DNA of 64,000 nucleotides from an uncultured virus (IMG/VR IMGVR_UViG_3300036770_004343) (lineage: Duplodnaviria; Heunggongvirae; Uroviricota; Caudoviricetes), in the IMG/VR virus record IMGVR_UViG_3300036770_004343, positions 1-64,000 of that record; one strand, written 5' to 3'. Below the pieces are notes generated by a model. The model saw nothing but the letters and a program-made list of their open reading frames with translations, did not search any database and was not told where the DNA came from. Position numbers and translations under genes: made by a program. Every line of letters starts with the position of its first letter. Position 1 is the stretch's first letter. This document shows positions 1,108-62,251 of the stretch, in pieces.

Positions 1108-1605
1108 TTAAATGTTTTTTGCTTTTTCTATAATTTCTTTTAACTTTTTACTCTTTTTAGCGTCCATTGCGGCTTTCTTCATTGGTTCTGTTTTGTTGCC
1201 ATCTTTATCCAAATCCAAAAAGTCAGGCTTTGCACCTTCTTCATAACACTCATCACATTCCATATATTCCATCATCTTATCAATATCAGCTTCTTCTAGT
1301 TTTCTACCTACATATGGAGTAAGTATTTTCTTGATTTTACCAAACAAGTCAGCATCACCTTGGTCACCAGCAAATCTGTTTTTGTCACTGTGTTTGTCAA
1401 TTGTCTTGACAAAGGTCTTGGTAATCTTGCCTGGTTCTTCTGATTTTGGAGCTTTTTTAGCAACTGGCTTTTCAGCTTTTGGCTTTTCAACCTTTGGTTC
1501 GGCCTTTGGTTTTTCAGCTTTTTCAGCTTTTTCAGCTTTTTTAACTTCGGTTGCTACTTCTTCGTATACTTCTTGTATAAGTTTTTTTAAATCTGTTTTG
1601 GTCAT
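1108..1605 (-). CDS. Modular Lys/Glu-rich phage protein (KAEK/KPKAE repeats, DLDKDG motif); probable capsid cargo
   Basis: N-terminal MTKTDLKKLIQEVYEE; low-complexity repeat; C-terminal PDFLDLDKDGNKTEPMKKA module. Confidence 0.6.
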   Translation of the reverse strand: MTKTDLKKLIQEVYEEVATEVKKAEKAEKAEKPKAEPKVEKPKAEKPVAKKAPKSEEPGKITKTFVKTIDKHSDKNRFAGDQGDADLFGKIKKILTPYVGRKLEEADIDKMMEYMECDECYEEGAKPDFLDLDKDGNKTEPMKKAAMDAKKSKKLKEIIEKAKNI

Positions 1606-1644
1606 AATAGTATTATATTGATGTTATAGAAATAAATATAACAA

Positions 1645-1944
1645 TCAATTGGTTATAATTTGTTTTTTTATCAAACCGTCATACCATTTTCTACCAATTT
1701 CACTAAATCTATAGTCCCACTTTAATATGTAACGACTTTTTAATTCATTAACCATCGCCGTAGCATATCCTCTTCGACGATGTTCATAACTTATGTTTAT
1801 ATATTCTATACATACAATATCATCATAGCAGTTGACCTTGTAATACTTACAAAAGCCAACAGCATTGCCTTGTTTATTTAAAATTTCACAATTGTATTCG
1901 TCTCGGTTATTGTTGTAACCCAAATACGTGTGAATGAATTTCAT
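1645..1944 (-). CDS. GNAT family acetyltransferase
   Basis: Motif A EHRRRGYAT. Confidence 0.75.
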   Translation of the reverse strand: MKFIHTYLGYNNNRDEYNCEILNKQGNAVGFCKYYKVNCYDDIVCIEYINISYEHRRRGYATAMVNELKSRYILKWDYRFSEIGRKWYDGLIKKQIITN

Positions 1945-1947
1945 AAA

Positions 1948-2640
1948 CTAAGCGTGACACAACCAAGCTTGTATATTAAATCTCTTGTTTTCCCAAGACA
2001 AATCCTTCGGTGCTGTAATTTCACTACAAGCGTGAAACACACTAGATGGAAAAATAGTCAATTGATTGCTGGTCAATGGTAACTTATATGTATTGTTCTT
2101 GTACATAAAGTACTGTTCTCCACCTTTCATTACACTTGGATCTTGTACCAATGTAAGCGCAAATGTAAATGCGTTTTGTTTGTTTACCTCTATGCCATCC
2201 CAAGTCATACCACTAACAGATAAATCACGGTGCCAATTATAATAACCACCGTCGCCATAGTTGATGATATGATACTTATACAAATATCTGTATTTTGAAT
2301 ACGCGTTTAATTCTTCATTTTTAGCGTGGGTTAGAAAATCTAGTGTTCCTTGGTGAAAAATATATTTGCTTAGATTTGATATATAATAACCAAGATCTTG
2401 ATTTTTTTCTTGGTTCTGTTTTTCAAACGGAAGCCAAACATCTTGTCCAGTACACAATGGACTCAATGGTTCATCTGGATTATAAGCAAGTCCATCATTA
2501 TAACCACCACTCCAATGTGGTACACCAAAATGCGGTTTTAATCTAATAAAGTCTTCATATAGTTTTTTTACATAATCTCTGGGAAGAAAATTATCAATTA
2601 CTACAAGAGGAATGGTTTCGTGTTCTACAGGAATATACAT
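1948..2640 (-). CDS. 2OG-Fe(II) oxygenase
   Basis: VIDNFL, WHRD, GGE, IFPSSVFH, C-terminal R. Confidence 0.85.
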   Translation of the reverse strand: MYIPVEHETIPLVVIDNFLPRDYVKKLYEDFIRLKPHFGVPHWSGGYNDGLAYNPDEPLSPLCTGQDVWLPFEKQNQEKNQDLGYYISNLSKYIFHQGTLDFLTHAKNEELNAYSKYRYLYKYHIINYGDGGYYNWHRDLSVSGMTWDGIEVNKQNAFTFALTLVQDPSVMKGGEQYFMYKNNTYKLPLTSNQLTIFPSSVFHACSEITAPKDLSWENKRFNIQAWLCHA

Positions 2641-2653
2641 AACATTTATATTT

Positions 2654-3358
2654 TTAATTATACCAACCAGATACGCTAATTCTTTCTTTGTTTGAATTGT
2701 TGACCACCTGAGTTACACAATGAGGTGCAACTCCAGCGGTTACTTCAAAAATAACCAATTTATTAAAAGATGGATTAATAGCTCTAATGTTGTTTTTGTC
2801 TCTCAAATCCAAATATAACCCACCAAAATCAGGATTCCAATCTTTAGTTAAATGACACACAAATGCCAGCTTGCCATTTACATCATCTGTATGATTGCTT
2901 AAAAAACATTTTTCAGAATAACGACTTACAAATGTTTTATCACCCGTCGTAATATTTAGATCTGTTACACTATTGATAAAGTCTATCATTTCTTTACCGT
3001 TAAAGAAAGCCATTGTTTCATTATAAACAGTGCAATTGAACTTTTCCATTACCCCAGGCATTGTTTTAAAGAAAAAGTAACTAAACAAATTGTTATCTCT
3101 GGCATTACAAGCGTGTTGATACGCTTGTTCCATAACATATCTGTTGGTAGGAACATTTTGCCACCATTCCCAATCACCTTCATATCTAAGAGATGGCATA
3201 TATGTAGCACACCAATGTTCTTTATTCATCTCAGTTGTATAGTACTTGTGTAACTTTTCAGCCCATTCTTCTGTCAAAAAGTTATCTATTACAACCCGTC
3301 TGTTTTTGATAAATTCTTCTTTATAAGCAGAAGCATTGATATTTTTTATATTAATCAT
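2654..3358 (-). CDS. 2OG-Fe(II) oxygenase (prolyl-hydroxylase-like)
   Basis: HTD, W-x-P-x-FGG, FNKLVIF, PHCV, RISVSGW. Confidence 0.85.
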   Translation of the reverse strand: MINIKNINASAYKEEFIKNRRVVIDNFLTEEWAEKLHKYYTTEMNKEHWCATYMPSLRYEGDWEWWQNVPTNRYVMEQAYQHACNARDNNLFSYFFFKTMPGVMEKFNCTVYNETMAFFNGKEMIDFINSVTDLNITTGDKTFVSRYSEKCFLSNHTDDVNGKLAFVCHLTKDWNPDFGGLYLDLRDKNNIRAINPSFNKLVIFEVTAGVAPHCVTQVVNNSNKERISVSGWYN

Positions 3359-3361
3359 ATA

Positions 3362-3595
3362 TTAGCCATTTAAAACATTTTTGACACATCCTTTTGATAG
3401 AGCTAAAATTTCATCAAGTGTTTCCTTAACTCTAATAGATCCACCATTCTGGTGAGATGTATTAATAACAGTGTGCTTACCACTAGGACTTGGTTCCATA
3501 CTAACCGCTCTATCCAAATTAAATAAAATTGGAATATAAGTGCGGGTATTATCGTGATTCAGATCCAACTGATTTAGTTTTACAAAATGTGCCAT
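3362..3595 (-). CDS. FlbD/SwrD-like small protein
   Basis: FVKL...FNLDRAVSME...TVI...VKETLDEI pattern. Confidence 0.5.
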   Translation of the reverse strand: MAHFVKLNQLDLNHDNTRTYIPILFNLDRAVSMEPSPSGKHTVINTSHQNGGSIRVKETLDEILALSKGCVKNVLNG

Positions 3596-3605
3596 ATTTT
3601 CTATT

Positions 3606-3634
3606 AATATATAACGAGTATTTTAGTGGGTCAA
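3606..3634 (-). promoter_or_regulatory. sigma70-type promoter
   Basis: TTGACC-N17-TATATT upstream of the 3595 start. Confidence 0.55.
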
Positions 3635-3669
3635 GTAAAATATGAAAATATAATAACTACTTATAGTTA

Positions 3670-4065
3670 ATGGCAGTTACTAATACATTTGGATCAGTTT
3701 GTGAAACTTGGAACTCATATTGTTTCACTTGGGGCGATTGTATTGCTTCTGTTGTTGAAGTTTTGGAGGGAGGAGCTAGAAATCCTCAAGAATGGGGAGA
3801 TCATCCTTTTGATAATTATGAAGATCAACAAAAGGCATTGCTTGATTTTCAATTAAAGAATCCTCAAAAAACAGCTAAACTTGTTGACATATTATTAAAG
3901 TGTCAAAATAAAAAATATAAGAAAACTATTGAAATACCCGACAAAAAGATATTTATAAAAGTAAATGACGTAAACTTTATTATTGATACACTTAATGAGG
4001 TAGGCGTTGACATAAAAAATATAAGAAAGTATAACGACGATGAGCTACAAAATTTACTTGGATAA
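3670..4065 (+). CDS. Hypothetical protein
   Basis: 131-aa ORF, CTACTTAT motif 5 nt upstream. Confidence 0.65.
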   Translation: MAVTNTFGSVCETWNSYCFTWGDCIASVVEVLEGGARNPQEWGDHPFDNYEDQQKALLDFQLKNPQKTAKLVDILLKCQNKKYKKTIEIPDKKIFIKVNDVNFIIDTLNEVGVDIKNIRKYNDDELQNLLG

Positions 4066-4555
4066 AGATTTTGCATTTGAATGTGAAGCAGCAATTAAAA
4101 ATGCATCATACAAAAACAGTTCCGCTCGCTTGATCCTCGAAAGCGACGACGTAAATCTTGTGTTTTATGGCAACGTAGATAAAAATACAATCAATGTACC
4201 AATCAAAAGTTTAAAGAAATACTTTACAGAAAAAGATAGTGCAAAAATAAAATTGGAAGTTATTGTAGAAAATCAATTGGTTACTCCGTGGGAAAGTGAA
4301 GTTGAATTTGATAACTACAATAAGGTGGAGATCAAAGAAATCAAAAATATCAAACAAAACCCATTGGTGGAAATTAAAATAAAAGAAGAACCAAAAGAAG
4401 AAGTTATCGTTGAAAAAACAAAACCTGTGGATAGTCCAAAACAAAGTCTTTTAAAGAACATCAACGAAGAAATCAAAAAGATAAAAGCAAACGGAAAAAT
4501 AAATAAAGAGGCAAAAAAAGAATTAATTAAAAATCTATTACAAAAAGGTTTATAA
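4040..4555 (+). CDS. Hypothetical protein, possibly structural
   Basis: 171-aa ORF with beta-rich N-terminus and charged tail. Confidence 0.65.
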   Translation: MSYKIYLDKDFAFECEAAIKNASYKNSSARLILESDDVNLVFYGNVDKNTINVPIKSLKKYFTEKDSAKIKLEVIVENQLVTPWESEVEFDNYNKVEIKEIKNIKQNPLVEIKIKEEPKEEVIVEKTKPVDSPKQSLLKNINEEIKKIKANGKINKEAKKELIKNLLQKGL

Positions 4556-4570
4556 TTAATATAATATGAT

Positions 4571-5122
4571 ATGCCAGTTTTTCCATCACAAAATCTAAAT
4601 ACACAAAAAATTTGTGAGTCATATCCAAAATTATTACAAGTATATAGCAGTAGCTTAGTTCTCGACGGTACAGGTAGTTTAATAAAATTTTTAAATCTTA
4701 CATCAAGTTATGCACTCAATTGTAACTGTCCATCAGGATCGGGCGGTACACAACTATATACAGGCAGTACTTATCCAATTACAAGTAGTTGGGCATTATA
4801 TACACTGACTAGTAGTTATATACAAGTTACAGGTGTAAGTTATCCAGTAAGAAAAATCAATAACAACTACACTATAGTAAAAACCACTGATTATACTATT
4901 CTATGTGATGCAACTAGTGGTAGCTTTGATGTTAAATTGCCAAATCCATCGGGTAACACAAACATTTATAACATAAAAAAAATAGATCACACAGGTCATT
5001 GTGTAAACGTGATGGTAACAAATGCTTCTTATATAGACTATGATGTTACTCAAAGTATTTGTCATAGAGGTACAAATATGACCATACAAAGTGATGGTAC
5101 AAACCAATATTGGATATTATAA
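4571..5122 (+). CDS. Putative virion structural/fibre-associated protein
   Basis: SSYA/SSWA/GS motifs; C-terminal DYTILCDATSG...LP...SDGTNQYWI domain typical of fibre proteins. Confidence 0.6.
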   Translation: MPVFPSQNLNTQKICESYPKLLQVYSSSLVLDGTGSLIKFLNLTSSYALNCNCPSGSGGTQLYTGSTYPITSSWALYTLTSSYIQVTGVSYPVRKINNNYTIVKTTDYTILCDATSGSFDVKLPNPSGNTNIYNIKKIDHTGHCVNVMVTNASYIDYDVTQSICHRGTNMTIQSDGTNQYWIL

Positions 5123-5125
5123 TTT

Positions 5126-6358
5126 ATGTCATACTTCGAAAAAACAAGAATATTATCAGCAGACAGTCCAAGCATCGATGCTTTCGGTAAATGGCGTGTT
5201 AGTCAACCAACCACATTATTCGATGGCAAACAAATAGTTGATAGCGGCAGTTTCTACTTTGATATCAAAACAACATCTGGCGGTACTGTAACGTGGAATA
5301 GTGGTAGCGCTCAAAGCACAATGGCTGTAACTTCTACAAGTGGTAGTAGAGCTATAAAACAAACCAAAAGAATATTTATATATCAGCCAGGTAAAAGTCA
5401 ACAAATCATTTGCACAGGTAAATTTGATGGCAGAGTTGACGGCATAAAGAAAAGTATGGGTAGTTTCGATGATGATAATGGATATTTCTTTCAAACAAGT
5501 GGTAGCAGTTTTGGTATAGTATTAAGAAAAACAATCAATGGTGTAAGAACAGATACATTTGTAAGTCAAAGCACTTGGAACTTAGATAAAATGAATGGTA
5601 CAGGTCCATCTGGTAATACCTTGGATGTAAGTAAAGCTCAAATTTATACAATGGATTATGAATGGTTAGGTGTGGGTAGAATTCGTTATGGAGTTGTACA
5701 AAAAGGTATATTGATATATGTACACGAAATAAACAACTATAATAGTCTAGAAACAGTTTACTTGCGCAATCCTAATTTACCCATAAGATATGAAATAAGT
5801 ACCCACAAAAATACCACAACTGGCAGTTTGATGACACAAATATGTAGCACAGTTATAAGTGAAGGTGGTTTTGATAATACAGGCAAAAGAGTGGTCATTA
5901 CAAGTAATAATGGTGCTACTATTGGTGCAAGTGAATATGACGCTGTATTGTTTATAAGATATAATAGTGCTACGTCTAAATGTGCTCAAATCATACCTGA
6001 ACAATTAGATTTATTGATAAAGCCTGGCAATAGTAGCACCTTTGCCGGAAGATGGGAGTTATTAGTTAACCCAACGGTAACAAATGCCGTAACCTATAAC
6101 AACGTTAGTGGATCGGTAGTAACACAAGTGGGTGTAGTAAGTGCTGGAAATGTTATAATAGACCCAGGCACAATTATAGCAACTGGATATTTTGCTGGTA
6201 CATCAGCTAATAGTGTGGCGCAAATGGTAACATTGGATCCATATTATGGTTTGGGTAGAAAAATAGACAATAGCAGCGATGTATTAGCAATTGCTATAAA
6301 AACAATAGATAATACATACACAGTATATCCATCATTAATAGTTAGAGAATTAACATAA
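5126..6358 (+). CDS. Putative virion structural protein (beta-sandwich/lectin-like)
   Basis: DAFGKWRVS-P-TLFD, YQPGKS, YEWLGVG motifs; Ser/Thr/Gly-rich. Confidence 0.6.
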   Translation: MSYFEKTRILSADSPSIDAFGKWRVSQPTTLFDGKQIVDSGSFYFDIKTTSGGTVTWNSGSAQSTMAVTSTSGSRAIKQTKRIFIYQPGKSQQIICTGKFDGRVDGIKKSMGSFDDDNGYFFQTSGSSFGIVLRKTINGVRTDTFVSQSTWNLDKMNGTGPSGNTLDVSKAQIYTMDYEWLGVGRIRYGVVQKGILIYVHEINNYNSLETVYLRNPNLPIRYEISTHKNTTTGSLMTQICSTVISEGGFDNTGKRVVITSNNGATIGASEYDAVLFIRYNSATSKCAQIIPEQLDLLIKPGNSSTFAGRWELLVNPTVTNAVTYNNVSGSVVTQVGVVSAGNVIIDPGTIIATGYFAGTSANSVAQMVTLDPYYGLGRKIDNSSDVLAIAIKTIDNTYTVYPSLIVRELT

Positions 6359-6471
6359 AATATAAAGATATATAAACCAATATTTATTGCTATAAGCACT
6401 ACAAGAAACAACCACACGAATAAAAATACTAGAAAATAGAATCTCACAACTAGAATCTAAACAATAACCAC

Positions 6472-6505
6472 AAAAACCCCACCAAATTAATGATGGGGTT
6501 TTTTT
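6472..6505. terminator. Probably bidirectional Rho-independent terminator
   Basis: AAAAACCCCA...TGGGGTTTTTTT. Confidence 0.75.
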
Positions 6506-6572
6506 ATTAAATAATTTTAACGATTTTTCTACTTTTTTTCTACTTTGATATATTCAATCACTATTTATTAGT

Positions 6573-6716
6573 ATGGGAAGAAAACAAAAATATATCACAG
6601 ATGAAGAAAAATTAAACGCACGCCGTGAAAGACAAATGCGTTATTATTTCAATAATCAACAAGTTAAAAAAGAAAAAGCATTAGAAAGATATTACAAAAA
6701 GAAAGGGGAAAAATGA
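6573..6716 (+). CDS. Small basic protein (47 aa), translationally coupled to the endonuclease
   Basis: Own translation MGRKQKYITDEEKLNARRERQMRYY...; ATGA overlap with 6713. Confidence 0.7.
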   Translation: MGRKQKYITDEEKLNARRERQMRYYFNNQQVKKEKALERYYKKKGEK

Positions 6717-7519
6717 AACTCTATTTGATGATAAAAACACATAATATAACCGGCAAAAAATATTTATGCAAAAAACAAGCTAGAAGTGATGTAGAGGCTG
6801 TTAAATACACAGGATCAGGTCTTAAATGGAAACCACATTTAAAAGAATTTGGCAAAAATTTTACTACTGAAATTTTGTTTGTTTGTCCAATTGAAAACAA
6901 GAAGGAATTTAGAAAAATAGCTATAGATTATAGTTATAAACTTAATATTTTAAGTGATTCAAATTGGATGAATATGATATTAGAAGATGGCGGTGGTGGT
7001 TCAACATCAGAAACAAATGGTAGTAAAGGTAAAAAATGGATTTATAAAGATGAACAAAGAAAAAGTGTATGTCAAAGTGTATTGCAAGAGTATCTATCAA
7101 ATGGTTGGACTCTTGGATTTCCAGAAAAATTTAAAAAAATCATTTCTGATTATAGCAAAGGAAAAATTCCGTGGAATAAAAATAAAAGTTTAAAACTTCC
7201 ACATGAATATACATCAAGAATTTATAAAAAGAAATATAATACAAATAAAAATAAAAAGAATGAATATACTAGTGAACTTAGAAGTTTAATTGCAAAAGAA
7301 TGTTTAAATAGACCAGAAGTATTATTGAAATTTAAACAACCAAGAAAATCCCCAATTACAGCAAAAAATGTAACCACGAATGAAATTAAAACTCTTGGTA
7401 GAAGACAATGGCATGATGTTCACCAAATAGATTATAGGAAACTTTTGAAGGGATATACATCAAAAGGATGGAAGATGGTAGTGGTACCGGGACTTGAACC
7501 CGGAACTTCACCCTTATAA
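6713..7519 (+). CDS. Free-standing GIY-YIG (Seg-like) homing endonuclease
   Basis: KLYLMIKTHNITGKKYL...YTGSG, later N; NUMOD-like PWNK repeat; sits beside the tRNA array. Confidence 0.75.
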   Translation: MKLYLMIKTHNITGKKYLCKKQARSDVEAVKYTGSGLKWKPHLKEFGKNFTTEILFVCPIENKKEFRKIAIDYSYKLNILSDSNWMNMILEDGGGGSTSETNGSKGKKWIYKDEQRKSVCQSVLQEYLSNGWTLGFPEKFKKIISDYSKGKIPWNKNKSLKLPHEYTSRIYKKKYNTNKNKKNEYTSELRSLIAKECLNRPEVLLKFKQPRKSPITAKNVTTNEIKTLGRRQWHDVHQIDYRKLLKGYTSKGWKMVVVPGLEPGTSPL

Positions 7520-7552
7520 GGAGTGTACTCTAACCACTTGAGTTATACCACT
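7476..7552 (-). tRNA. tRNA-Ile (UAU)
   Basis: AGTGGTA/TACCACT acceptor, CACTC-CTTATAA-GGGTG anticodon arm, TTCAAGT T-loop, encoded CCA. Confidence 0.9.
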
Positions 7553-7561
7553 ATCAAAAAA

Positions 7562-7641
7562 TGGAGCGGTGTCTCGGACTTATTTATTCACCGGCCTTCT
7601 CACTGGAATGTGAACGTGCTCCTCATAGACACTAACACCGC
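7562..7641 (-). tRNA. Aberrant tRNA-Gly-like (UCC in a 6-nt loop; non-canonical T arm)
   Basis: GCGGTGT/ACACCGC acceptor + U73 + CCA; TTCAC-ATTCCA-GTGAG; no TTC T-loop. Confidence 0.6.
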
Positions 7642-7649
7642 ATTAAAAT

Positions 7650-7722
7650 TGGAGCGGGTCCGAACTTTGCATTTCGCCTTTTAGTCTGGTAGACTAACGT
7701 GCTCTCTTTACACTTGACCCGC
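7650..7722 (-). tRNA. Aberrant tRNA-Gly-like (ACC anticodon)
   Basis: GCGGGTC/GACCCGC acceptor + U73 + CCA; TTAGT-CTACCAG-ACTAA; D-loop lacks GG; 4-bp T stem CGAA/TTCG. Confidence 0.65.
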
Positions 7723-7732
7723 ATCTTAAATC

Positions 7733-8035
7733 AAAATAGGAAGGACTAATGATTACCTCCAAGTTTCAGAATCACGACTGGTTATTCATCCACAGTCCAC
7801 ACGGTTAATTACTCCTTGTGTTAATGACTGATGGGATTTGTTTTTCCCACAACGGGCTACGATTTATCATTTATATTTTAGCTACGATCCCGATACGCTC
7901 AAATTCAAGGTTGTACGACCTCAAATTCTCCATAGATTTACCCTCCATAACTCTTACTCCAACCAATATACAACGTTTTTCAACGCCATATATTGTGCGT
8001 TACAACTAAACTAATCGTTGTTCCGCCACTATCTT
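7733..8035 (-). ncRNA. Candidate ~300-nt structured ncRNA, family unassigned
   Basis: Ends pair (AAGATAG/CTATTTT); internal helices CAATATAT/GTATATTG with a GAAA tetraloop, TTTGAGGT/ACCTTGAA, TGGGA/TCCCA, GACTG/CAGTC, TGATT/AATCA; lies within the tRNA transcript. Confidence 0.6.
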
Positions 8036-8038
8036 AAA

Positions 8039-8051
8039 TTGTTAAAGAACT
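8039..8051 (-). promoter_or_regulatory. boxA-like antitermination element
   Basis: AGTTCTTTAACAA versus rrn boxA TGCTCTTTAACA. Confidence 0.55.
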
Positions 8052-8052
8052 A

Positions 8053-8186
8053 TTGAAAAAGTTGATGGGACTTGAACCCACATACATAACGTCTATTTGT
8101 AGTTATATCGTTAATCGGCGGTTTTCCCCGTGTCTACAACTTTGGGTACCGACCTCCTGCTACGCCATTCGCTACAACCTTCTCAA
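8053..8186 (-). ncRNA. tRNA-like RNA with the anticodon arm replaced by a ~75-nt insert
   Basis: 12-bp terminal stem, TA linker, D-loop with GG, GTGGG-TTCAAGT-CCCAT T arm; no encoded CCA. Confidence 0.65.
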
Positions 8187-8194
8187 TTGAAAAA

Positions 8195-8472
8195 TGGTAG
8201 GCGTGAGTGGATTCGAACCACCGCTTTACAGATTTTCGTACCACTATAATTTTCATTACACATTTCTGTTTTGTGGTCTGGACTTTCTCTTCATCATAAC
8301 ATTTCTGTTTTAGATGTTTGCCGTTAAGTCTCTACACCTTCTCATTTCTGAGCTTGGCTCGGGATTGGCAGTTAAGCTTTCCCCGAATTTGACAAATTCT
8401 ACTTTAGAGATTTCTCTCTAAGCACTCAATTTACGCTAAAGTCTGTTGACTCTTCCGCTGGTCTACACGCCC
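8195..8472 (-). tRNA. tRNA-Leu (UAA), intron-containing (exons 8439-8472 and 8195-8236), short variable loop
   Basis: GGGCGTG/CACGCCT acceptor, spliced loop ACAGA-CTT^AAAA-TCTGT, TTCGAAT T-loop, CCA. Confidence 0.85.
8237..8438 (-). ncRNA. Group I intron (IC3-like, ~202 nt, no ORF) in the tRNA-Leu(UAA) anticodon
   Basis: P1 ACTT/GAGT with U.G at the splice site; core AAATTCGGGGAA, AATCCCGAG, GTAGAGACT, AAGAGAAAGTCC; terminal omega-G. Confidence 0.9.
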
Positions 8473-8513
8473 ATTTAAATTACTTACAAAGAACTATTAC
8501 TTACTACTCTTTC

Positions 8514-8541
8514 ATCTTACCACATCTTACTTACTTGTCAA
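8514..8541 (-). promoter_or_regulatory. sigma70-type promoter
   Basis: TTGACA-N16-TAAGAT with TG extended -10. Confidence 0.7.
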
Positions 8542-8561
8542 ACAAGTTTTTCAGAAAAAAA

Positions 8562-8645
8562 TGGTAGGGATGGAGGGACTTGCACCCCCACGGTTTTACC
8601 CACGGCTTTTTGAGAGCCGCATGTCTTCTGTTCCATCACATCCCC
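8562..8645 (-). tRNA. tRNA-Leu (CAA)
   Basis: GGGGATG/CATCCCT, CGGCT-CTCAAAA-AGCCG, long variable arm, T-loop TGCAAGT, CCA. Confidence 0.85.
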
Positions 8646-8655
8646 GTTTTTAAAA

Positions 8656-8749
8656 TGGTGGTTCCGCCCGGATTCGAACCGAGACCGTGCTCAAATCTAG
8701 AGCTTATCAACGTTATAAGCGTTGCGTTCTACCGTTAAACTACGGAACC
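8656..8749 (-). tRNA. tRNA-Ile (UAU) with a long variable arm
   Basis: GGTTCCG/CGGAACC, CAACG-CTTATAA-CGTTG, 24-nt variable region with GCTC-TAGATTT-GAGC hairpin, CCA. Confidence 0.85.
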
Positions 8750-8755
8750 ACTAAA

Positions 8756-8834
8756 TGGTAGCGGGGACAGGATTTGAACCTGTGACCTCCTGGTTATGAG
8801 CCAAGCGAGCTGATCCGGGCTGCTCCACCCCGCA
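8756..8834 (-). tRNA. tRNA-fMet-like (CAU)
   Basis: T1:T72 mismatch, GCGGGG stem, CTTGG-CTCATAA-CCAGG, TTCAAAT T-loop, CCA. Confidence 0.85.
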
Positions 8835-8841
8835 AATTGTT

Positions 8842-8854
8842 TTGTTAAAGAACT
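8842..8854 (-). promoter_or_regulatory. boxA-like element
   Basis: AGTTCTTTAACAA just downstream of a promoter. Confidence 0.55.
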
Positions 8855-8865
8855 AACTAAAAATT

Positions 8866-8893
8866 ATCTTATCACACATTGATGTTTTGTCAA
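8866..8893 (-). promoter_or_regulatory. sigma70-type promoter
   Basis: TTGACA-N16-TAAGAT. Confidence 0.7.
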
Positions 8894-8990
8894 CATCTAA
8901 AATCGTCGCCGGTCTTTTAATTGGCGCTTTAATCCTCTGGTGGGGAACCAACTCAAGTGTCCTATTAATCGGGTATTCTCCGGGCGTAAA

Positions 8991-9062
8991 TGGTTGGAAC
9001 GGTGGGTGCTGCCCCCACTTAAACTGGCTTATGAAACCTGTTTCTTTGCTGAAAGCGCTCCA
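8991..9062 (-). tRNA. Aberrant CAU-anticodon tRNA-like gene
   Basis: TGGAGCG/CGTTCCA + A + CCA; D arm CTTT-CAGC-AAAG without the 8-9 linker; loop TTCATAA; T-loop GGCAGCA. Confidence 0.6.
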
Positions 9063-9069
9063 ATTAAAA

Positions 9070-9146
9070 TGGTTGCTGAAGCGTAGGAATCGCACCTACT
9101 TAATGAGTGGTTATGAGCCACCCCCAGATCTAACCTGCCGCCAGCT
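9070..9146 (-). tRNA. Aberrant CAU-anticodon tRNA-like gene (initiator-like 1:72 mismatch)
   Basis: GGGTGG-CTCATAA-CCACTC 6-bp anticodon stem, GTAGG-TGCGATT-CCTAC, bulged acceptor, CCA. Confidence 0.6.
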
Positions 9147-9156
9147 ATTAAATTGT

Positions 9157-9288
9157 GTTGGTTTCGATAATACACGGAGGTTTATTTCAACGAACTAGCG
9201 TTTTTTATTGACTCACAATTATCATTTTTTTCTCAGGTTTGTACGCTTTTCAGCGTTCCATCAATCTGATACTCTATTTTCCACCAAC
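9157..9288 (-). ncRNA. Candidate ~130-nt structured RNA
   Basis: GTTGGT/ACCAAC closing stem, ACGCT-GAAA-AGCGT, TCAG/CTGA, TGATAAT/ATTATCG. Confidence 0.45.
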
Positions 9289-9362
9289 TAAAATTATCAA
9301 AAGAACAAATTAAAAATTGTGTTGGGTGTGTTTATTGAATACTCTATCCACCCAACAAACAG

Positions 9363-9391
9363 AGTATACCATACGCTAACCCCGCAACCAA
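9363..9391 (-). promoter_or_regulatory. Extended -10 promoter
   Basis: TTGGTT-N17-TATACT with TG. Confidence 0.5.
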
Positions 9392-9487
9392 GAAGTTTTT
9401 TAAGAGATCTTCCATACTCTAGGGGTGTTATGGTTTAACGCCCTCCACCAATCAGTTTTATCTTCTGGATAACTGATCAACCAGTAA

Positions 9488-9562
9488 TGGTAGAGCCACA
9501 GAGAATCGAACTCTGATTACTGCCTTGAAAGGGCGGTGTCCTGGCCGTTAGACGATGACTCC
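9488..9562 (-). tRNA. tRNA-Glu (UUC)
   Basis: GGAGTCA/TGGCTCT, CCGCC-CTTTCAA-GGCAG, TTCGATT, CCA. Confidence 0.92.
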
Positions 9563-9569
9563 GTTAAAT

Positions 9570-9645
9570 TGGTGGGACCGGACGGACTTGAACCGTCAAC
9601 CAATTCGTTAAAAGCGAACTGCTCTGCCAATTGAGCTACGATCCC
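9570..9645 (-). tRNA. tRNA-Lys (UUU)
   Basis: GGGATCG/CGGTCCC, GTTCG-CTTTTAA-CGAAT, TTCAAGT, CCA. Confidence 0.92.
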
Positions 9646-9653
9646 ATTAAAAT

Positions 9654-9666
9654 TTGTTAAAGAACT
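9654..9666 (-). promoter_or_regulatory. boxA-like element
   Basis: AGTTCTTTAACAA between the promoter and tRNA-Lys. Confidence 0.55.
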
Positions 9667-9678
9667 TATTACAAAATC

Positions 9679-9706
9679 ATCTTACCACACATTCTTAACT
9701 TGTCAA
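9679..9706 (-). promoter_or_regulatory. sigma70-type promoter
   Basis: TTGACA-N16-TAAGAT with TG. Confidence 0.7.
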
Positions 9707-9710
9707 GTAT

Positions 9711-9818
9711 TTCTTTGTTCTTTGTTGGTGACCCCCTTCGGTTAAAGGCCGAGGCAGTTCCGCCATACGTAGATGTTCTAGAGGAGTGCTTCTCCCACCG
9801 TGCTTAAAGAACAAAGAA
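9711..9818 (-). ncRNA. Candidate ~110-nt multibranched sRNA with a 13-bp terminal inverted repeat
   Basis: TTCTTTGTTCTTT/AAAGAACAAAGAA; GC-rich interior; own promoter. Confidence 0.5.
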
Positions 9819-9839
9819 TCGTTTACTTACTACTTCTTT

Positions 9840-9867
9840 ATCTTAACATTCAATTTTCAAAGATCAA
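9840..9867 (-). promoter_or_regulatory. sigma70-type promoter
   Basis: TTGATC-N16-TAAGAT. Confidence 0.55.
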
Positions 9868-9935
9868 GAACTTTCTTTCAAAAGTTTTGAGGTAAAATAT
9901 AAATATAATCAAATATTAGTAAATTACCGAAAAAG

Positions 9936-10011
9936 TGGTGTCCCCGCCAGGAATTGAACCTGGACCAGAGAGGTAGAAGCTCTCTGCTCTATCCATTTAA
10001 GCTACGAGGAC
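9936..10011 (-). tRNA. tRNA-Arg (UCU)
   Basis: GTCCTCG/CGGGGAC, GAGAG-CTTCTAC-CTCTC, TTCAATT, CCA. Confidence 0.92.
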
Positions 10012-10018
10012 ACTGAGA

Positions 10019-10351
10019 TTACTTACCGTTATCAAGTTCTTTACGAAGAGCTTTACCAAGTTCAGTTAGCTGAAACAGTGGTTCGCCGTCTTCGTTATGA
10101 CCGGATACATATAATAGACCATCTTCTACCATTTTGTCAACTGTTTCTTTAACTTCTGACAACACAAGTTCGTTATAGATTACTTCTGCTTCAAACTCAT
10201 TGCATTCAAGTTCTTTCATAATTACTTGAATACAAGCTTCTTTTTCCTCGACTTTGACTTGTTCTTCAACTTTATCAACGTCTAAGTTGGAACAATGACT
10301 GAGCAGATCATCGATTGATCCGGTAAAGTTGTCTGTGATATATTTATCCAT
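10019..10351 (-). CDS. Hypothetical protein with a winged-helix-like C-terminus
   Basis: MVEDGLL...FQLTELGK. Confidence 0.6.
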   Translation of the reverse strand: MDKYITDNFTGSIDDLLSHCSNLDVDKVEEQVKVEEKEACIQVIMKELECNEFEAEVIYNELVLSEVKETVDKMVEDGLLYVSGHNEDGEPLFQLTELGKALRKELDNGK

Positions 10352-10365
10352 TGTATGGTCTTTTA

Positions 10366-10656
10366 TTAGGCTACCCAGGCGAATTCTACGTTCTTGTAAT
10401 AACGAACGGATCGCTTTGCGATGCTGTCAAGTGACTTACTGACATTGTGGGGAACACGAACATTCTTACCCCAACCATTTTCAGCTCGGCCTAGAGCAAT
10501 AGCAAATCCCTTGCGTTTATCAAAACGATCACCAGCCTTTGTATTGGTATAACTCCAACCAACACGAACTGAGTCATTAATAACTGTGGCTACCACATAA
10601 CCACGGGGTTGACCATTGCGGTCACGTACCAACTGCTTGAGTGTAGTGTCTTTCAT
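10366..10656 (-). CDS. Conserved hypothetical phage protein (start likely ATG 10656)
   Basis: VGWS...DRFDKRKG..IALGRA motif; this start avoids overlap with the upstream ORF. Confidence 0.65.
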   Translation of the reverse strand: MKDTTLKQLVRDRNGQPRGYVVATVINDSVRVGWSYTNTKAGDRFDKRKGFAIALGRAENGWGKNVRVPHNVSKSLDSIAKRSVRYYKNVEFAWVA

Positions 10657-10681
10657 ATAACTTGTTTTTAAATGTTTTGGT

Positions 10682-10864
10682 TTACTTTCCTTCGACGTAT
10701 CGGAGTAGATCACGATTTGGTTCGACCCCAATCTTTTCGTCTACAGTCTGCTTGATAGCAGCTTTGTAATAATACTGTGCGTATAGATCTGTTAGTTGTA
10801 GTTTGCGTTCAGCAATTTTTTCTTTGAGGTTATTAATAACTGTTTGAGTTGTCTTCGTCTTCAT
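10682..10864 (-). CDS. Hypothetical protein
   Basis: 60-aa ORF in a co-directional run. Confidence 0.55.
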   Translation of the reverse strand: MKTKTTQTVINNLKEKIAERKLQLTDLYAQYYYKAAIKQTVDEKIGVEPNRDLLRYVEGK

Positions 10865-10988
10865 ACTTTGAATTGTAACGTGATGGCTTTACTTCAGTAT
10901 TTTGCCATTTCTTGTTAGTCTTTTTATTTGCTTTGTTGCGCCAATTTCCTTCGTTGCGTGAACGACGATCTTTGAATGACTTTCCCAT
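10833..10988 (-). CDS. Small basic hypothetical protein (51 aa)
   Basis: Own translation MGKSFKDRRSRNEGNW... Confidence 0.55.
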   Translation of the reverse strand: MGKSFKDRRSRNEGNWRNKANKKTNKKWQNTEVKPSRYNSKYEDEDNSNSY

Positions 10989-11017
10989 ATACTACTTTTA
11001 AAAATAAATAGTGTTAG

Positions 11018-11051
11018 AAAAAGGGATTAATAAGTTTTTTTATTAACCCCT
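11018..11051 (-). terminator. Probable terminator
   Basis: AGGGGTTAATA/TATTAATCCCT + T tract. Confidence 0.5.
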
Positions 11052-11066
11052 CAATCTTTGAACTGT

Positions 11067-11345
11067 TTAATTTGCAGAAGTCTGAGACGATTCAGCAGTA
11101 GTAGTTGTTGACTCAACAGCAGGAGTTGCGTCGTAGGTATACACGATACTTGGCTTACCACGCTTACCGGTCTTCTGTGATCCACTAATCTTGTATCGAC
11201 CAGCGGTTACATTACGCTTAACGTGCATCCGAATTGTCGGAGCCTTAACGTTGGCGTTGATGTTAATCAGATCAACAATAGTGAAATTGCGATCAGTGAT
11301 TTCGTTTACTGCGGTTGCCTTACGGCCTGTCTTGTTCTTGTTCAT
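11067..11345 (-). CDS. Small winged-HTH-like DNA-binding protein
   Basis: FTIVDL...TIRMHV...GKRGKPSIVY. Confidence 0.55.
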   Translation of the reverse strand: MNKNKTGRKATAVNEITDRNFTIVDLININANVKAPTIRMHVKRNVTAGRYKISGSQKTGKRGKPSIVYTYDATPAVESTTTTAESSQTSAN

Positions 11346-11384
11346 ATTTTTTATTTTTTGTTAATGTTAACCGACTACAAATTC

Positions 11385-11413
11385 ATCTTACCACATACTT
11401 TAAACAATGTCAA
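11385..11413 (-). promoter_or_regulatory. sigma70-type promoter
   Basis: TTGACA-N17-TAAGAT with TG. Confidence 0.75.
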
Positions 11414-11423
11414 CGTTCTTTTT

Positions 11424-11633
11424 TTAAATCTTTCGAGCTGATTCAAAAACCAGAGCATTGGTGAGATCACCAAAGCCATAACGCTTGCCATTTCGATCAA
11501 ACGTAGTGTCGCTGCTCTTGCTGTAATAACCAACGTTCTCACCATTAGGACCGTGAGCGTAAATTACGTTGCCACTGTCCTTTACATATCCAATTCGGAC
11601 GTTCTTACCATCCATAATATATTTTGTACTCAT
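11424..11633 (-). CDS. Hypothetical beta-hairpin repeat protein
   Basis: Repeating D-x-N-G-x-x-V/I-G-Y units. Confidence 0.6.
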   Translation of the reverse strand: MSTKYIMDGKNVRIGYVKDSGNVIYAHGPNGENVGYYSKSSDTTFDRNGKRYGFGDLTNALVFESARKI

Positions 11634-11642
11634 ATTTTGTTT

Positions 11643-12185
11643 TTAGTTGTTATCAATAAAGTTACGATAAAATCCCATCACAATTCCACTGGTAGTACCC
11701 ACATTAAGTGAACGTACACTACCATACGCAGGAATGGTTACAATATAATCAGCATTGTCAAGAATATAATCACTCAACCCACTCTTTTCTTCACCAAAGA
11801 CAAACATTGGCTTATCTACACCAGTAAATACCCAGTGGTTAAAAATAGATACAGTCTTGTCACTATACTTGGGAATGTTGTTTTCTACTGCAATTAGTGT
11901 ATAACCATTGTCATTCACATACGCAACAAAGTCTTGTTCTGTCTTGATGTGACTAAGATCGGTGTAATGATGAGTGCCAACAGTACCACGGCGATCCCAC
12001 TGCTTACTACCACCAACATACATTGCTTCCTTGAAGCCAAAGAAGTTGGCGTTGCGTACTAGAGTGGATAGATTAAAGTCACCGTTAACGTGCATCATAG
12101 CAACACCAGCGTCAATACAGGTGTCCTTACAATACGACTTGATATCGTCCACACTCTTGTTCTTCAGATGATCCAAAACATTCAT
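11643..12185 (-). CDS. SpoU/TrmH-family (SPOUT) RNA 2'-O-methyltransferase
   Basis: NLSTLVRNA, VFGEEKSGLS, IPAYGSVRSLNV. Confidence 0.88.
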   Translation of the reverse strand: MNVLDHLKNKSVDDIKSYCKDTCIDAGVAMMHVNGDFNLSTLVRNANFFGFKEAMYVGGSKQWDRRGTVGTHHYTDLSHIKTEQDFVAYVNDNGYTLIAVENNIPKYSDKTVSIFNHWVFTGVDKPMFVFGEEKSGLSDYILDNADYIVTIPAYGSVRSLNVGTTSGIVMGFYRNFIDNN

Positions 12186-12194
12186 AGTAAAATT

Positions 12195-12223
12195 ACTTTA
12201 CCACGAAGTTTATAATAAGTCAA
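12195..12223 (-). promoter_or_regulatory. sigma70-type promoter
   Basis: TTGACT-N17-TAAAGT. Confidence 0.6.
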
Positions 12224-12471
12224 TTCTTTTTCTTAATTGTCTTTTTGGACTTATTCTCTGATTCTTTTGCATATTCCACAGGAGAGTTTGCAACTGTAGA
12301 TTTGCTGTTAGCATATTCCTTTTCAGCTTCTTCAATTACAGCTTTAACAAAATCTGTAAGTAGACCGCTCCAATTATTTCGTTCACTATCTTCTACGATT
12401 GCCAGTTTTTTCCATCGTGGCAATTCGTTGAATTTGCGTTGATATACTGTTTTATAGAATGATGCAGTCAT
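12220..12471 (-). CDS. Hypothetical protein
   Basis: 83 aa; ATATTTAT motif upstream. Confidence 0.6.
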   Translation of the reverse strand: MTASFYKTVYQRKFNELPRWKKLAIVEDSERNNWSGLLTDFVKAVIEEAEKEYANSKSTVANSPVEYAKESENKSKKTIKKKN

Positions 12472-12483
12472 ATAGTATAAATA

Positions 12484-12735
12484 TTAAAATGAAGTACTCA
12501 AACGACTAGCATATGCCATATTGCTAGCTTTTCCTTTGCGGTATGACACTTTGGAATAGTTGTCAAATGCTTTCTTTGAAGTGATTACAATACTACCCGC
12601 AGTTTTGTGTCCAAAATGCAAATAACCATACTTTTGGGTACGTTTAGCGACTGATTCGCCACACGGCAAACAAATCTTGTAACCAAGTTCATAACGTTCA
12701 GGATGAATTTCATTTCCACAACCACATTTGATCAT
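12484..12735 (-). CDS. DksA/TraR-type C4 zinc-finger protein
   Basis: CGCGNEIHPER...ICLPC. Confidence 0.6.
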   Translation of the reverse strand: MIKCGCGNEIHPERYELGYKICLPCGESVAKRTQKYGYLHFGHKTAGSIVITSKKAFDNYSKVSYRKGKASNMAYASRLSTSF

Positions 12736-12743
12736 ATATAAAA

Positions 12744-12772
12744 AGTGTACATCAAGCTGTGGTTGCGGTCAA
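12744..12772 (-). promoter_or_regulatory. sigma70-type promoter
   Basis: TTGACC-N17-TACACT. Confidence 0.6.
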
Positions 12773-12774
12773 TA

Positions 12775-12800
12775 AAAAAAGCGTACCGAGTGGTACGCTT
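12775..12800 (-). terminator. Rho-independent terminator
   Basis: AAGCGTACC-ACTC-GGTACGCTT + T tract. Confidence 0.8.
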
Positions 12801-12807
12801 GTTGTTT

Positions 12808-13317
12808 TTAATTGGTAGGTTCGTGGTGATAATCAGATCGAAGGTGAACTAGTTCAGCGTGTAGCTTGTTGAGTTCAGATTCGTAAATATCCAATTTACG
12901 TTCAATGTCACTGATTTTTTGTAGTCTTGCGTCGAGAATATAATCTGGATCTGAATGTTCTCTGTTCTTAATATCTTCTTCTAGAGCACAACCGATGTGA
13001 TTTGTGCCAAAAAGATACTCAACGTCATCATTATAAGTATTTTTACCGCAGTAACTGCAAGTCCACTTTTCTTTTCGTTCATCTACAATAATTTTATCTA
13101 ACCTAGTTAGTGTTTCTACAACTTCGGTATTAGATTCAGCGTTAAGAATATCATATGCCCAATTTAAAGCATTGTCTTCACGGTCTTCTAATTCTGGGTA
13201 AAGTTTGATTAGTTCTTTCTCAATTAGATTGATGTATGGATCAATTTGTTCTTTTTGAATTGTACGCAATGCTTTTGCGTATGTTAGTATGATGTTTTTG
13301 CTTATTGTGTTATTCAT
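12808..13317 (-). CDS. Hypothetical protein with a CxxC...H..C site and coiled coil
   Basis: WTCSYCGK...HIGC. Confidence 0.6.
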   Translation of the reverse strand: MNNTISKNIILTYAKALRTIQKEQIDPYINLIEKELIKLYPELEDREDNALNWAYDILNAESNTEVVETLTRLDKIIVDERKEKWTCSYCGKNTYNDDVEYLFGTNHIGCALEEDIKNREHSDPDYILDARLQKISDIERKLDIYESELNKLHAELVHLRSDYHHEPTN

Positions 13318-23342: not shown

Positions 23343-23343
23343 T
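23316..23343 (+). promoter_or_regulatory. sigma70-type promoter
   Basis: TTGACT-N16-TATAGT. Confidence 0.55.
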
Positions 23344-23355
23344 TATAGTATAGTT

Positions 23356-62250: not shown

Positions 62251-62251
62251 T

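Follow-up and report, generated by a model that had tools for sequence, protein, structure and literature searches.

Positions 7476–10011 of a 64,000-nt stretch of an uncultured virus of the Caudoviricetes (IMG/VR record IMGVR_UViG_3300036770_004343, positions 1 to 64,000; this whole stretch is hereafter called the window) form a 2.5-kb island of RNA genes, every one of which lies on the minus strand. We think it probable, while well short of assured, that the island is a boxA-protected cluster of stable RNAs that retunes translation and that also carries RNAs beyond ordinary tRNAs. Most of its elements are kept, with compensatory base changes, among 18–21 viral contigs, and at least one of them, a 308-nt RNA of no known family, is found as a stable and very abundant transcript. 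An initial annotation of the island, made from the sequence, had argued for selection rather than decay, and the homologues, the covariation and this transcript bear it out.

The inventory of the island agrees in most respects with that annotation, which had described 2.5 kb without a credible coding sequence, eight recognisable tRNAs and five aberrant tRNA-like genes. None of the six longest open reading frames (ORFs; 52–103 aa) matches a PHROG at E≤0.01. ARAGORN finds seven tRNAs in the entire 64-kb window, all of them within the island on the minus strand, and an eighth, split tRNA at 8195–8472 once introns are allowed, while Rfam at its gathering score returns the identical seven tRNAs plus one group I intron. 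The relaxed (mitochondrial) mode of ARAGORN adds three further genes (7650–7722, 8991–9062 and 9074–9145), and these, together with 7562–7641 and 8057–8143, make up the five aberrant genes. Four of the five had been credited with an encoded CCA, a count that holds for the three that end in N73-CCA; one gene has its CCA a base late and one has none. The claim of at least three other structured RNAs is also supported, strongly at 7733–8040, well at 9377–9485 and by conservation at 9722–9800, and a hairpin at 9311–9356 can be added. Far from all elements belonging to known Rfam families, only the tRNAs and the intron reach a gathering score. No transfer-messenger RNA (tmRNA) was found by the tmRNA mode of ARAGORN, and the Rfam tmRNA match reached just 9.2 bits across 15 nt. 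A blastn comparison with 50,697 GenBank phage records gave no likeness to the island except for tRNAs and the intron.

Relatives were found through a 110-aa protein encoded just upstream of the island, which yielded 18 loci in viral contigs with protein identities of 75–100%. Two of these match the window without a difference across 3,052 nt; in the others the island is a mosaic in which blocks are 72–98% identical, some blocks are absent and some slots hold a different tRNA. Pattern scans widened the set to 19 loci for a tRNA-Gly-like gene and 21 for the 308-nt RNA. Proposed structures were assessed by the percentage of alignment cells that pair, compared with the same figure after sliding the partners, by counts of compensatory changes, and by a covariation score compared with 500 shuffles. 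Expression was read from the contigs of four metatranscriptome runs, depth being the summed word depth per bin. These contigs span most island bins, and the flanking bins 7300–7507 and 9900–10211 have zero depth in all four runs, which indicates that the cover comes from RNA and not from contaminating DNA; at island parts with little or no cover the contigs prove nothing.

The 308-nt RNA (7733–8040, minus strand) is supported both by covariation and by metatranscriptome depth. Across 18 distinct sequences, its 75 pairs in 13 helices are formed in 98.6% of cells, against 34–47% when partners are slid; 17 pairs show compensatory changes (4–6 when slid) and none of the 500 shuffles reaches its score. 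It scores at most 17 bits against Rfam even when searched alone, and neither blastn against the GenBank phages nor a scan of 185,579 species genomes for an exact pattern found a copy. A Gly-like gene lies within about 15 nt downstream in all 16 alignment rows that reach that far. In three of the runs the bins of the RNA have depths of 1,262–13,065 (maxima 5,216, 7,813 and 13,065 in X15, X17 and X18), with most other bins below about 30, and contigs of the near-identical allele have depths of 197–882 compared with 3–13 for neighbouring island contigs of the same run. As to its function, our guess, held with low confidence, is that it could titrate a host protein or ribosomal component by binding. 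Inspection by eye did not favor coding content, the two tiny ORFs not being kept in relatives, or a role for GGA motifs, whose frequency is no higher than expected by chance. One relative (L047, 372–734, minus strand) is a recombinant that retains only the 3' domain, the first ~100 nt being swapped for a promoter-like stretch and a tRNA fragment.

Downstream of this RNA lie two paralogous tRNA-Gly-like genes on the minus strand. The first (7650–7722), seen by ARAGORN in relaxed mode and by our covariance model R1, folds as a cloverleaf (z-score −3.36) and has an anticodon loop CUACCAG (anticodon ACC), U73-CCA, a 4-bp T stem and an 8-nt T loop with G replacing U55. The second (7562–7641), placed by model R1 and pair counts, has UUCC in an anticodon loop of 6 or 8 nt, U73-CCA, and a 3-bp T stem with an enlarged loop. 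For 7562–7722 the Rfam tRNA model (RF00005, gathering score 29) gives no hit at E≤10. Model R1, built from 14 distinct copies, recovers 31 family members in 24 sources, and among 18 members (16 distinct) 90.2% of cells are paired against 34–51% when slid, 11 of 20 pairs are compensatory and none of 500 shuffles reaches the score. G1-C72 and C2-G71 are present in all 16 distinct sequences, pair 4-69 is G-C in 12 and A-U in 4, and C35, C36, U73 and CCA do not vary among the 14 sequences compared. Bacterial glycyl-tRNA synthetase (GlyRS) determinants, as listed in the available part of the source, are G1C72, C2G71, C35, C36, U73 and a purine at 4 with a pyrimidine at 69 (PMC10464925), a published set that the pair carries in full; judging from these nucleotides, the two RNAs are most likely charged with glycine. 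Their T arms depart from the standard 5-bp stem and T-Psi-C loop, with stems of 3–4 bp and G at U55, and the usual 7-nt anticodon loop is found in 7650–7722 and not in 7562–7641.

The eighth tRNA is a tRNA(UAA) that carries the classical group I intron of tRNA-Leu(UAA). Exon 1 (8439–8472) ends in CUU, a 202-nt intron without an ORF (8237–8438) sits between U34 and A35, and exon 2 (8195–8236) starts with AAAA and ends with ACCA, all on the minus strand. RF00028 matches 8256–8448 at 74.8 bits (cut-off 50; E 4e-17; model positions 1–253 of 253). In L004, an allele without the intron matches window positions 8544–8439 and continues straight into 8236–8190, and the borders of the intron follow from this alignment; exon 2 is also supported by ARAGORN with introns allowed, as is exon 1, and by the intron alleles. 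U precedes the 5' splice site, the last intron base is G, and the rejoined 7-nt loop CUUAAAA gives the anticodon UAA, the placement proposed by ARAGORN (anticodon GAA) being wrong by one base. The intron occurs in 3 of 10 Rfam-scanned relatives (L008, L010 and L018) and an intron-less 76-nt gene in three others. Compensating changes among the four intron alleles fall in the acceptor and D stems of the tRNA and in P2 and P9, and the L010 intron has a 56-nt insert in its P9 loop. RNA contigs include the unspliced form (8207–8468) and an intron-only contig (8237–8435), each with 0 mismatches. The intron would probably splice itself, for which the changes in P2 and P9 and the intron-only contig are indirect evidence.

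Introns of this type are present elsewhere in phage genomes. According to the available part of a 2014 review, every phage intron known by then was located in a protein gene (PMC3984707), and our literature searches turned up no paper that describes an intron in a phage tRNA. A group I intron of 205 or 278 nt interrupts an unannotated tRNA-Leu(UAA) gene in LR756501, a 735-kb uncultured phage (78.8% identity; L038, 1456–1746, minus strand), and in MF403008, Agrobacterium phage Atu_ph07 (L039, 1317–1678, minus strand). Both are class II tRNA-Leu(UAA) genes, and both introns are missed by the Rfam filters at gathering score. The intron sequence gave no clue to the host or to an intron donor: at least 120 bacterial stretches from many phyla share the core pattern, and the best bacterial identity is just 75–77% across 134–179 nt.

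The tRNAs recognised by both ARAGORN and Rfam are, in the order of the minus strand, the canonical tRNA-Arg(UCU) (9936–10011; 63.2 bits), tRNA-Lys(UUU) (9570–9645; 70.6 bits), tRNA-Glu(UUC) (9488–9562; 52.3 bits) and tRNA-Met(CAU) (8756–8834; 56 bits), a 94-nt tRNA(UAU) with a variable-region hairpin of about 24 nt and a 7-nt loop UAGAUUU (8656–8749; 62.5 bits), a low-scoring class II tRNA-Leu(CAA) with G replacing U55 (8562–8645; 43.4 bits), and a canonical tRNA-Ile(UAU) (7476–7552; 64.3 bits). Codon usage was computed from 17,902 codons in 66 window ORFs, and the shares within codon families are 57% for AGA, 74% for AAA, 86% for GAA, 35% for UUA, 29% for UUG, 34% for AUA, 50% for GGU and 30% for GGA. 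All island anticodons, including those of the aberrant genes, read the first or second commonest codon of their family, a match that fits codon supply, the Gly-like pair (ACC and UCC) included. The initial annotation had proposed an RNA toolkit that goes beyond codon supply; the 308-nt RNA and a wcaG-like RNA described below speak for this, while the anticodons of all the tRNA-shaped genes fit codon supply. A convergent ORF that encodes 268 aa of no known family (6713–7519, plus strand) overlaps the 3' part of tRNA-Ile(UAU) with its final 44 nt.

Several of these tRNAs change class or carry additions among relatives. The tRNA(CAA) has 84 nt in the window and 77 nt in five relatives, and the spliced tRNA(UAA) has 76 nt with a 5-nt variable loop, relatives having either the 76-nt form or a class II form of 88 nt. 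The window's tRNA(UAA) thus lacks the long variable arm by which class II tRNA-Leu is defined. A73 and a 3-bp D stem are identity features of tRNA-Leu; this tRNA has both, and it starts with G1-U72 as do the class II Leu tRNAs of these phages. Since most UAA and CAA forms have A73 and G1-U72, and one acceptor stem is common to a UAA and a CAA gene, we read the forms of both classes as probable Leu acceptors. The 94-nt tRNA(UAU) combines a class I body with its variable-region hairpin and has the same length and Rfam score in all nine relatives listed with it. A second family of long tRNA(UAU), of 92–93 nt (L004 10129–10221, L005 9886–9978, L009 4986–5078 and L012 9493–9585), has different acceptor, D and T arms and bears the same UAGAUUU loop on a different stem; a loop shared by two otherwise unrelated tRNAs points to selection on the extra arm. 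Rfam also recognises 111-nt tRNAs in two relatives (L010 9583–9693 and L006 10581–10691; 52.9 and 48.8 bits) that ARAGORN misses, which must hold an insertion of about 38 nt and have no counterpart in the window.

Three other tRNA-shaped genes, again on the minus strand, likewise score below the threshold of the tRNA model. Two, both located by ARAGORN in relaxed mode, have the anticodon CAU. The gene at 9074–9145 has a 6-bp anticodon stem, G replacing U55 and its CCA one base late; its best Rfam hit is tRNA-Sec at just 17.3 bits, its minimum-energy fold is a cloverleaf, and its shape is kept in relatives despite changed stems. The gene at 8991–9062 has conserved non-standard D and T loops and an ACCA end, gives no Rfam tRNA hit at E≤10, and has a cloverleaf as its minimum-energy fold (z-score −2.46); the odd loops are fixed while the stems vary in L008, L005, L012 and L002. 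In other relatives these slots hold ordinary tRNA-Met genes, and although 23 of 32 pairs are compensatory, this count overstates the support, as the alignment rows mix in those ordinary tRNAs. The third, at 8055–8184, was identified with the tRNA model and by its minimum-energy fold; it lacks CCA and combines a canonical T arm and G3-U70 with large insertions. On the tRNA model, the 87 nt at its 3' side (8057–8143) reach 25 bits (cut-off 29; E 0.0055), and the T hairpin with its U run (8065–8081) looks terminator-like. It is whole in L010 (95.7% identity), whereas only its first 29 bases are seen in L002, at the end of the locus, and its last bases in two more contigs. RNA contigs of two runs skip exactly 8056–8189, as in relatives that lack the gene, which marks it as a mobile or dispensable cassette. 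Among the 13 tRNA-shaped genes of the island as a whole, the T loop contains TTC in eight, has G at the second position in four (tRNA-Leu(CAA) included) and is of another kind in one.

The remaining structured RNAs and the spacers differ in how much comparative support they have. The element at 9377–9485 (minus strand) is a three-hairpin RNA that aligns over its full length with the wcaG motif, RF01761, at 23.1 bits (E 0.011 in a 141-nt search), short of the gathering score of 42. Under a model that we built on 12 sequences (R2), pairing holds in 92.3% of cells against 40–59% when slid and none of 500 shuffles reaches the score; 6 of 7 pairs in P1 and 1 of 5 in P2 are compensatory, and P3 is nearly invariant. 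Next to it, at 9311–9376 (minus strand), a 12-locus alignment shows an extended −10-like site and after it a hairpin (8 bp, 20-nt loop) and a run of U, which may be terminator-like or a small RNA. The hairpin and U run (9311–9356) have a fold z-score of −2.62, and most pairs are invariant in all 12 rows by alifold. A pseudoknot that we considered for 9311–9376, in which a 7-bp helix would cross the hairpin, is not claimed, the variable pair being, by eye, C-G in 6, U-G in 2, U-A in 2 and C-A in 2 of the 12 rows. A candidate RNA of about 79 nt at 9722–9800 (minus strand), with a long 3' hairpin whose 7-nt loop contains UUU, is conserved in 17 of 18 related loci by blastn; only 2 of its 27 predicted pairs are compensatory, the sequences being too alike for more, and its z-score is −0.22. 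Of the two minus-strand spacers, 9160–9300 (z-score −0.28, low RNA-contig cover) has only two near-identical relatives beyond the window's own copies, and 8895–8990 (z-score −0.78) has only L004.

The regulatory signals of the island are promoter-like sites and a repeated 12-mer. A consensus scan located three strong promoters of the form TTGACA-N16-TAAGAT with TG, all on the minus strand, at 9679–9706, 8866–8893 and 8514–8541 (listed at 9706, 8893 and 8541). A regular-expression scan added a weaker promoter-like site, TTGATC-N16-TAAGAT with TG, at 9840–9867 (minus strand), which is absent from the consensus-scan list, and the extended −10-like site near 9343–9371 is invariant in the 12-locus alignment. 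Four to five sigma70-type sites are thus found where five promoters had been annotated. The window contains exactly three copies of the 12-mer GTTCTTTAACAA, each on the minus strand of the island (0.03 copies expected; 0 of 100 shuffles reach three). Two copies come next after strong promoters, at 9654–9665 following 9679–9706 and at 8842–8853 following 8866–8893, and the third, at 8039–8050, stands immediately ahead of the 308-nt RNA and is kept in 17 of 18 aligned relatives. Variants one or two bases off lie at 9801–9812 and 8483–8494, after the remaining two island promoters (9840–9867 and 8514–8541, respectively), so that four of the five copies are within about 40 nt after a promoter. We read the 12-mer as a probable rrn-type boxA-like antitermination motif, and the repeated boxA-like motifs of the annotation correspond to these three exact copies and two variants. 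A TTGACA/TAAGAT promoter with an N17 spacer at 11413, just outside the island, serves genes for small proteins and is not followed by a boxA.

A number of points weigh against the reading of the island as a boxA-protected cluster of translating and other stable RNAs. The metatranscriptome evidence comes from assembled contigs in all four runs, from which neither the strand nor the ends of an RNA can be read; one campaign may account for three of these runs, and in the fourth the 308-nt RNA is only mildly enriched (28–52 compared with ~2–40). The alignments of the Gly-like pair and of the wcaG-like RNA were fitted to the structures under test. An RNA joint without the intron may derive from intron-less relatives, and one of the contigs with this joint has 10 mismatches. 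The 12-mer is presumed to be an rrn-type boxA by comparison with a general consensus only. Ordinary decoding by the Gly-like pair is disfavored by T stems of only 3–4 pairs and by the anticodon loop of 7562–7641, which has 6 or 8 nt here and 6, 7 or 8 nt in relatives. Finally, 9160–9300, 8895–8990 and most of 8055–8184 are without comparative support.

The island is a mosaic: its elements are present in some relatives and absent from others, and the tRNA in a given slot can differ from contig to contig. This could also mean that neither the aberrant tRNA-like genes nor the spacers have a function of their own, being decaying pseudogenes or recombination debris, and the fold energies of the three unsupported stretches are indeed no better than those of shuffles. 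We consider this very improbable: compensating changes in stems while the odd loops stay fixed argue against it for five elements, identity nucleotides are invariant, and the 308-nt RNA is highly expressed. The retention of the five non-standard tRNA-shaped genes with compensating changes suggests working molecules, not wrecks. Such molecules might serve as decoys, or as nuclease-resistant substitutes, against host defences that cut tRNAs, their odd loops evading recognition. Their departures do cluster in loops that proteins read, namely the T and D loops, the length of the anticodon loop and the conserved variable-arm hairpin of tRNA(UAU). The available parts of two sources describe how tRNAs of phage T5 evade anticodon nucleases by means of altered loops (PMC10264068) and discuss a possible decoy role of phage tRNA-Tyr beside a defence that cuts the tRNA-Tyr variable loop (PMC13096335). 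However, the canonical tRNA-Lys, tRNA-Glu and tRNA-Arg of the same island have standard loops, and we regard a defence role as unlikely.

For the Gly-like pair, a more specific proposal is that the two RNAs are off-ribosome glycyl carriers, charged by GlyRS, poorly bound by EF-Tu and the ribosome, and used by an aminoacyl-tRNA-dependent transferase. The GlyRS identity set is entirely kept, G at U55 and T stems of 3–4 pairs recall the staphylococcal non-proteogenic tRNA-Gly as described in the available part of its source (PMC7826273), and the drift of the anticodon loop between 6, 7 and 8 nt while C35 and C36 are fixed suggests selection for charging and not for codon reading. On the other hand, the main argument against a purely off-ribosome role is that the Gly codons read by ACC and UCC are the two commonest. 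G at U55 is also shared with a CAU tRNA-like gene and with tRNA-Leu(CAA), which is ordinary in other respects, and is hence not specific to the pair. No partner enzyme was found either: the Fem-type transferase family PF02388 is represented in none of three related records (one complete and two fragments, where absence proves little) and in none of 59 window proteins, and the WbqC-like gene of the window is absent from the only complete relative that has both RNAs. We therefore hold the carrier role as a tentative idea, somewhat on the unlikely side. The suggestion of the initial annotation that the island supplies synthetase decoys or amino-acid carriers is likewise met halfway, the Gly-like anatomy (an intact GlyRS set with a degenerate T arm) being in its favor and the failure to find a partner transferase against it. 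A second proposal concerns the 308-nt RNA, which might be circularised after its excision, the circle being the stable and abundant form. Head-to-tail joints (8038 or 8040 to 7733) are present in RNA contigs of two of the four runs at depths of 26, 29 and 469, the joint contigs having 26–31 letters on the shorter side; each of 21 viral contigs has one pattern match per locus and shows no tandem DNA copy, and the ends of the RNA could, by eye, pair across 6 bp. Yet joint depth is only about 0.5–7% of that of the RNA, the flanks share a 7–9-nt repeat at the joint, which favors template switching by reverse transcriptase on an abundant RNA, assemblers can collapse tandem repeats, and no gene for the RtcB ligase was found in two related records. 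A circular RNA is no likelier a source of the joints than template switching during cDNA synthesis, and circularisation is in our view doubtful. Joining both proposals, the abundant and possibly circularised 308-nt RNA and one or two GlyRS-charged tRNA-Gly mimics kept off EF-Tu and the ribosome could form a linked module, a glycyl-carrier or synthetase- or defence-decoy system with no described viral counterpart; this too we think unlikely, and we prefer the reading of a boxA-protected cluster that retunes translation and carries additional RNAs.

A link between the Gly-like tRNAs and the WbqC-like gene at 61561–62250, beside PIG-L/LmbE and DegT genes, was also considered. Actinobacterial operons described in the available part of one source combine unusual tRNA-Pro genes with ProRSx, GT4, WbqC and lmbE (PMC10404621). 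The link was rejected: WbqC is absent from all three related records, one of which is a 100%-complete 296-kb genome that has the 308-nt RNA and a Gly-like gene. The WbqC-like protein has no sequence relative among solved structures, and its single-sequence structural model was useless (mean pLDDT 34.8).

Under the preferred reading of a boxA-protected stable-RNA cluster, the host RNA polymerase would transcribe the island from four or five sigma70-type promoters, and the boxA-like motif at the start of each RNA unit would recruit host Nus antitermination factors, sparing the long untranslated transcripts. Host RNase P and other processing enzymes would then cut out at least 13 tRNA-shaped and at least three other structured RNAs, the tRNA(UAA) being matured through self-splicing of its group I intron. 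For the 308-nt RNA, the RNase P site of the adjoining Gly-like gene probably sets the 3' end. GlyRS would charge the Gly-like pair, which would go on either to decoding or to service off the ribosome. The overall effect would be to retune translation toward the A/U-rich codons of the phage; the codon match is observed, and this purpose is what we propose for it.

The surrounding genes place the island in a particular kind of phage. The window has a GC content of 32.8% and encodes a T4-type family-B DNA polymerase, a clamp loader, a head protease and a baseplate lysozyme, along with many sugar-nucleotide enzymes and glycosyltransferases. Among GenBank phages, a Microcystis phage gives the best match to the DNA polymerase, with 42.4% identity, the rest being below 30%. 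The nearest record has 94.8 kb at an estimated completeness of 41%, which implies a genome of probably ~230 kb. DNA runs that contain the island are labelled as subsurface and lake-water metagenomes, and the RNA runs as riverine or freshwater metatranscriptomes. Judging from its gene content, this is a large freshwater T4-like phage with several cyanophage-like traits. A gene for a NifU-like iron-sulfur scaffold (29493–29891, plus strand) and two adjoining genes for 2-oxoglutarate (2OG)-Fe(II) oxygenases (1948–3358, minus strand) are of auxiliary types common in cyanophages. Sugar-nucleotide genes are clustered at 58747–63984 (plus strand) and 47429–48400, with a DegT aminotransferase, a WbqC-like protein, a PIG-L/LmbE deacetylase, a radical SAM protein and a GT4 glycosyltransferase. 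A gene for a SpoU-family RNA 2'-O-methyltransferase lies 1.6 kb upstream of the island (11643–12185, minus strand); its best named matches are TrmH, RlmB and TrmL, all far under the cut-offs, and its product could have the phage's own tRNAs as substrate. Two HNH endonuclease genes (23335–24000 and 27146–27889, plus strand), set amid replication and head genes, may encode free-standing homing endonucleases.

Phage tRNA clusters are usually taken as plain codon supply, and this island is a place in which to ask about wider uses of RNA by phages. Its relatives retain RNAs that have the shape of a tRNA and yet are not scored as such by standard models, and the only parallel to the Gly-like pair described in the portion of the literature available to us is the staphylococcal cell-wall tRNA-Gly (PMC7826273). 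The ancient intron of tRNA-Leu(UAA) type proves to reside in phage tRNA genes, also unannotated in two large GenBank phage genomes. The 308-nt RNA is new and highly structured, with word depths in river metatranscriptomes that run into the thousands, and Leu-anticodon tRNAs of classes I and II, together with the extra-arm tRNA(UAU), swap in and out among relatives. Each of these features gives concrete access to the question of how RNA serves phages in working with, or against, the translation and defence machinery of the host.

Comparison with known systems brings out both what is familiar and what is particular in the island. The tRNA cluster of phage T4 is a compact set of tRNA genes for A/U-rich codons with two extra small stable RNAs, matured by host enzymes. 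The island likewise mixes tRNAs for A/U codons with other stable RNAs; it differs in its several internal boxA-linked promoters, its tRNA intron, its five genes with non-standard elbows and its 308-nt RNA. The 12-mer is near the consensus that we take for rrn-type boxA and stands shortly after promoters of untranslated units, as boxA does, although here these are phage units of tRNAs and noncoding RNAs and not rRNA operons. The intron belongs to the same family (RF00028, 'Leu.3Ug') as that of bacterial and plastid tRNA-Leu(UAA), is small and without an ORF, and occupies the same U34/A35 site with CUU and AAAA exons, which the available part of the source gives as CUU/a...g/AAAA in cyanobacteria (Williams, bioRxiv 10.1101/2020.01.27.920355); in contrast to those introns, it is phage-borne and interrupts a 76-nt tRNA without a long variable arm. 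The wcaG motif is known, from the accessible portions of two sources, in marine metagenomes and T4-like cyanophages (PMC2864571; PMC9964418), and the RNA at 9377–9485 shares its three-hairpin layout and UGGUG-type joining segments and likewise belongs to a T4-like phage, one that has many sugar-nucleotide genes. This RNA resembles wcaG and cannot be filed as a member, since it scores below threshold and lies amid RNA genes instead of in the 5' UTR of an exopolysaccharide or high-light gene. The staphylococcal non-proteogenic tRNA-Gly has, in the available part of its description, TGC or TGT in place of TTC, weak T-stem pairs, low affinity for EF-Tu and a UCC anticodon; there, the lineage is reported only in staphylococci, where it works with Fem transferases (PMC7826273). 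The phage pair shares with it the G for U55, the weak T stems and the UCC anticodon, and differs in that no Fem gene was found with it, one copy reads ACC and the loop length varies, so the likeness is best read as one of design, not of descent.

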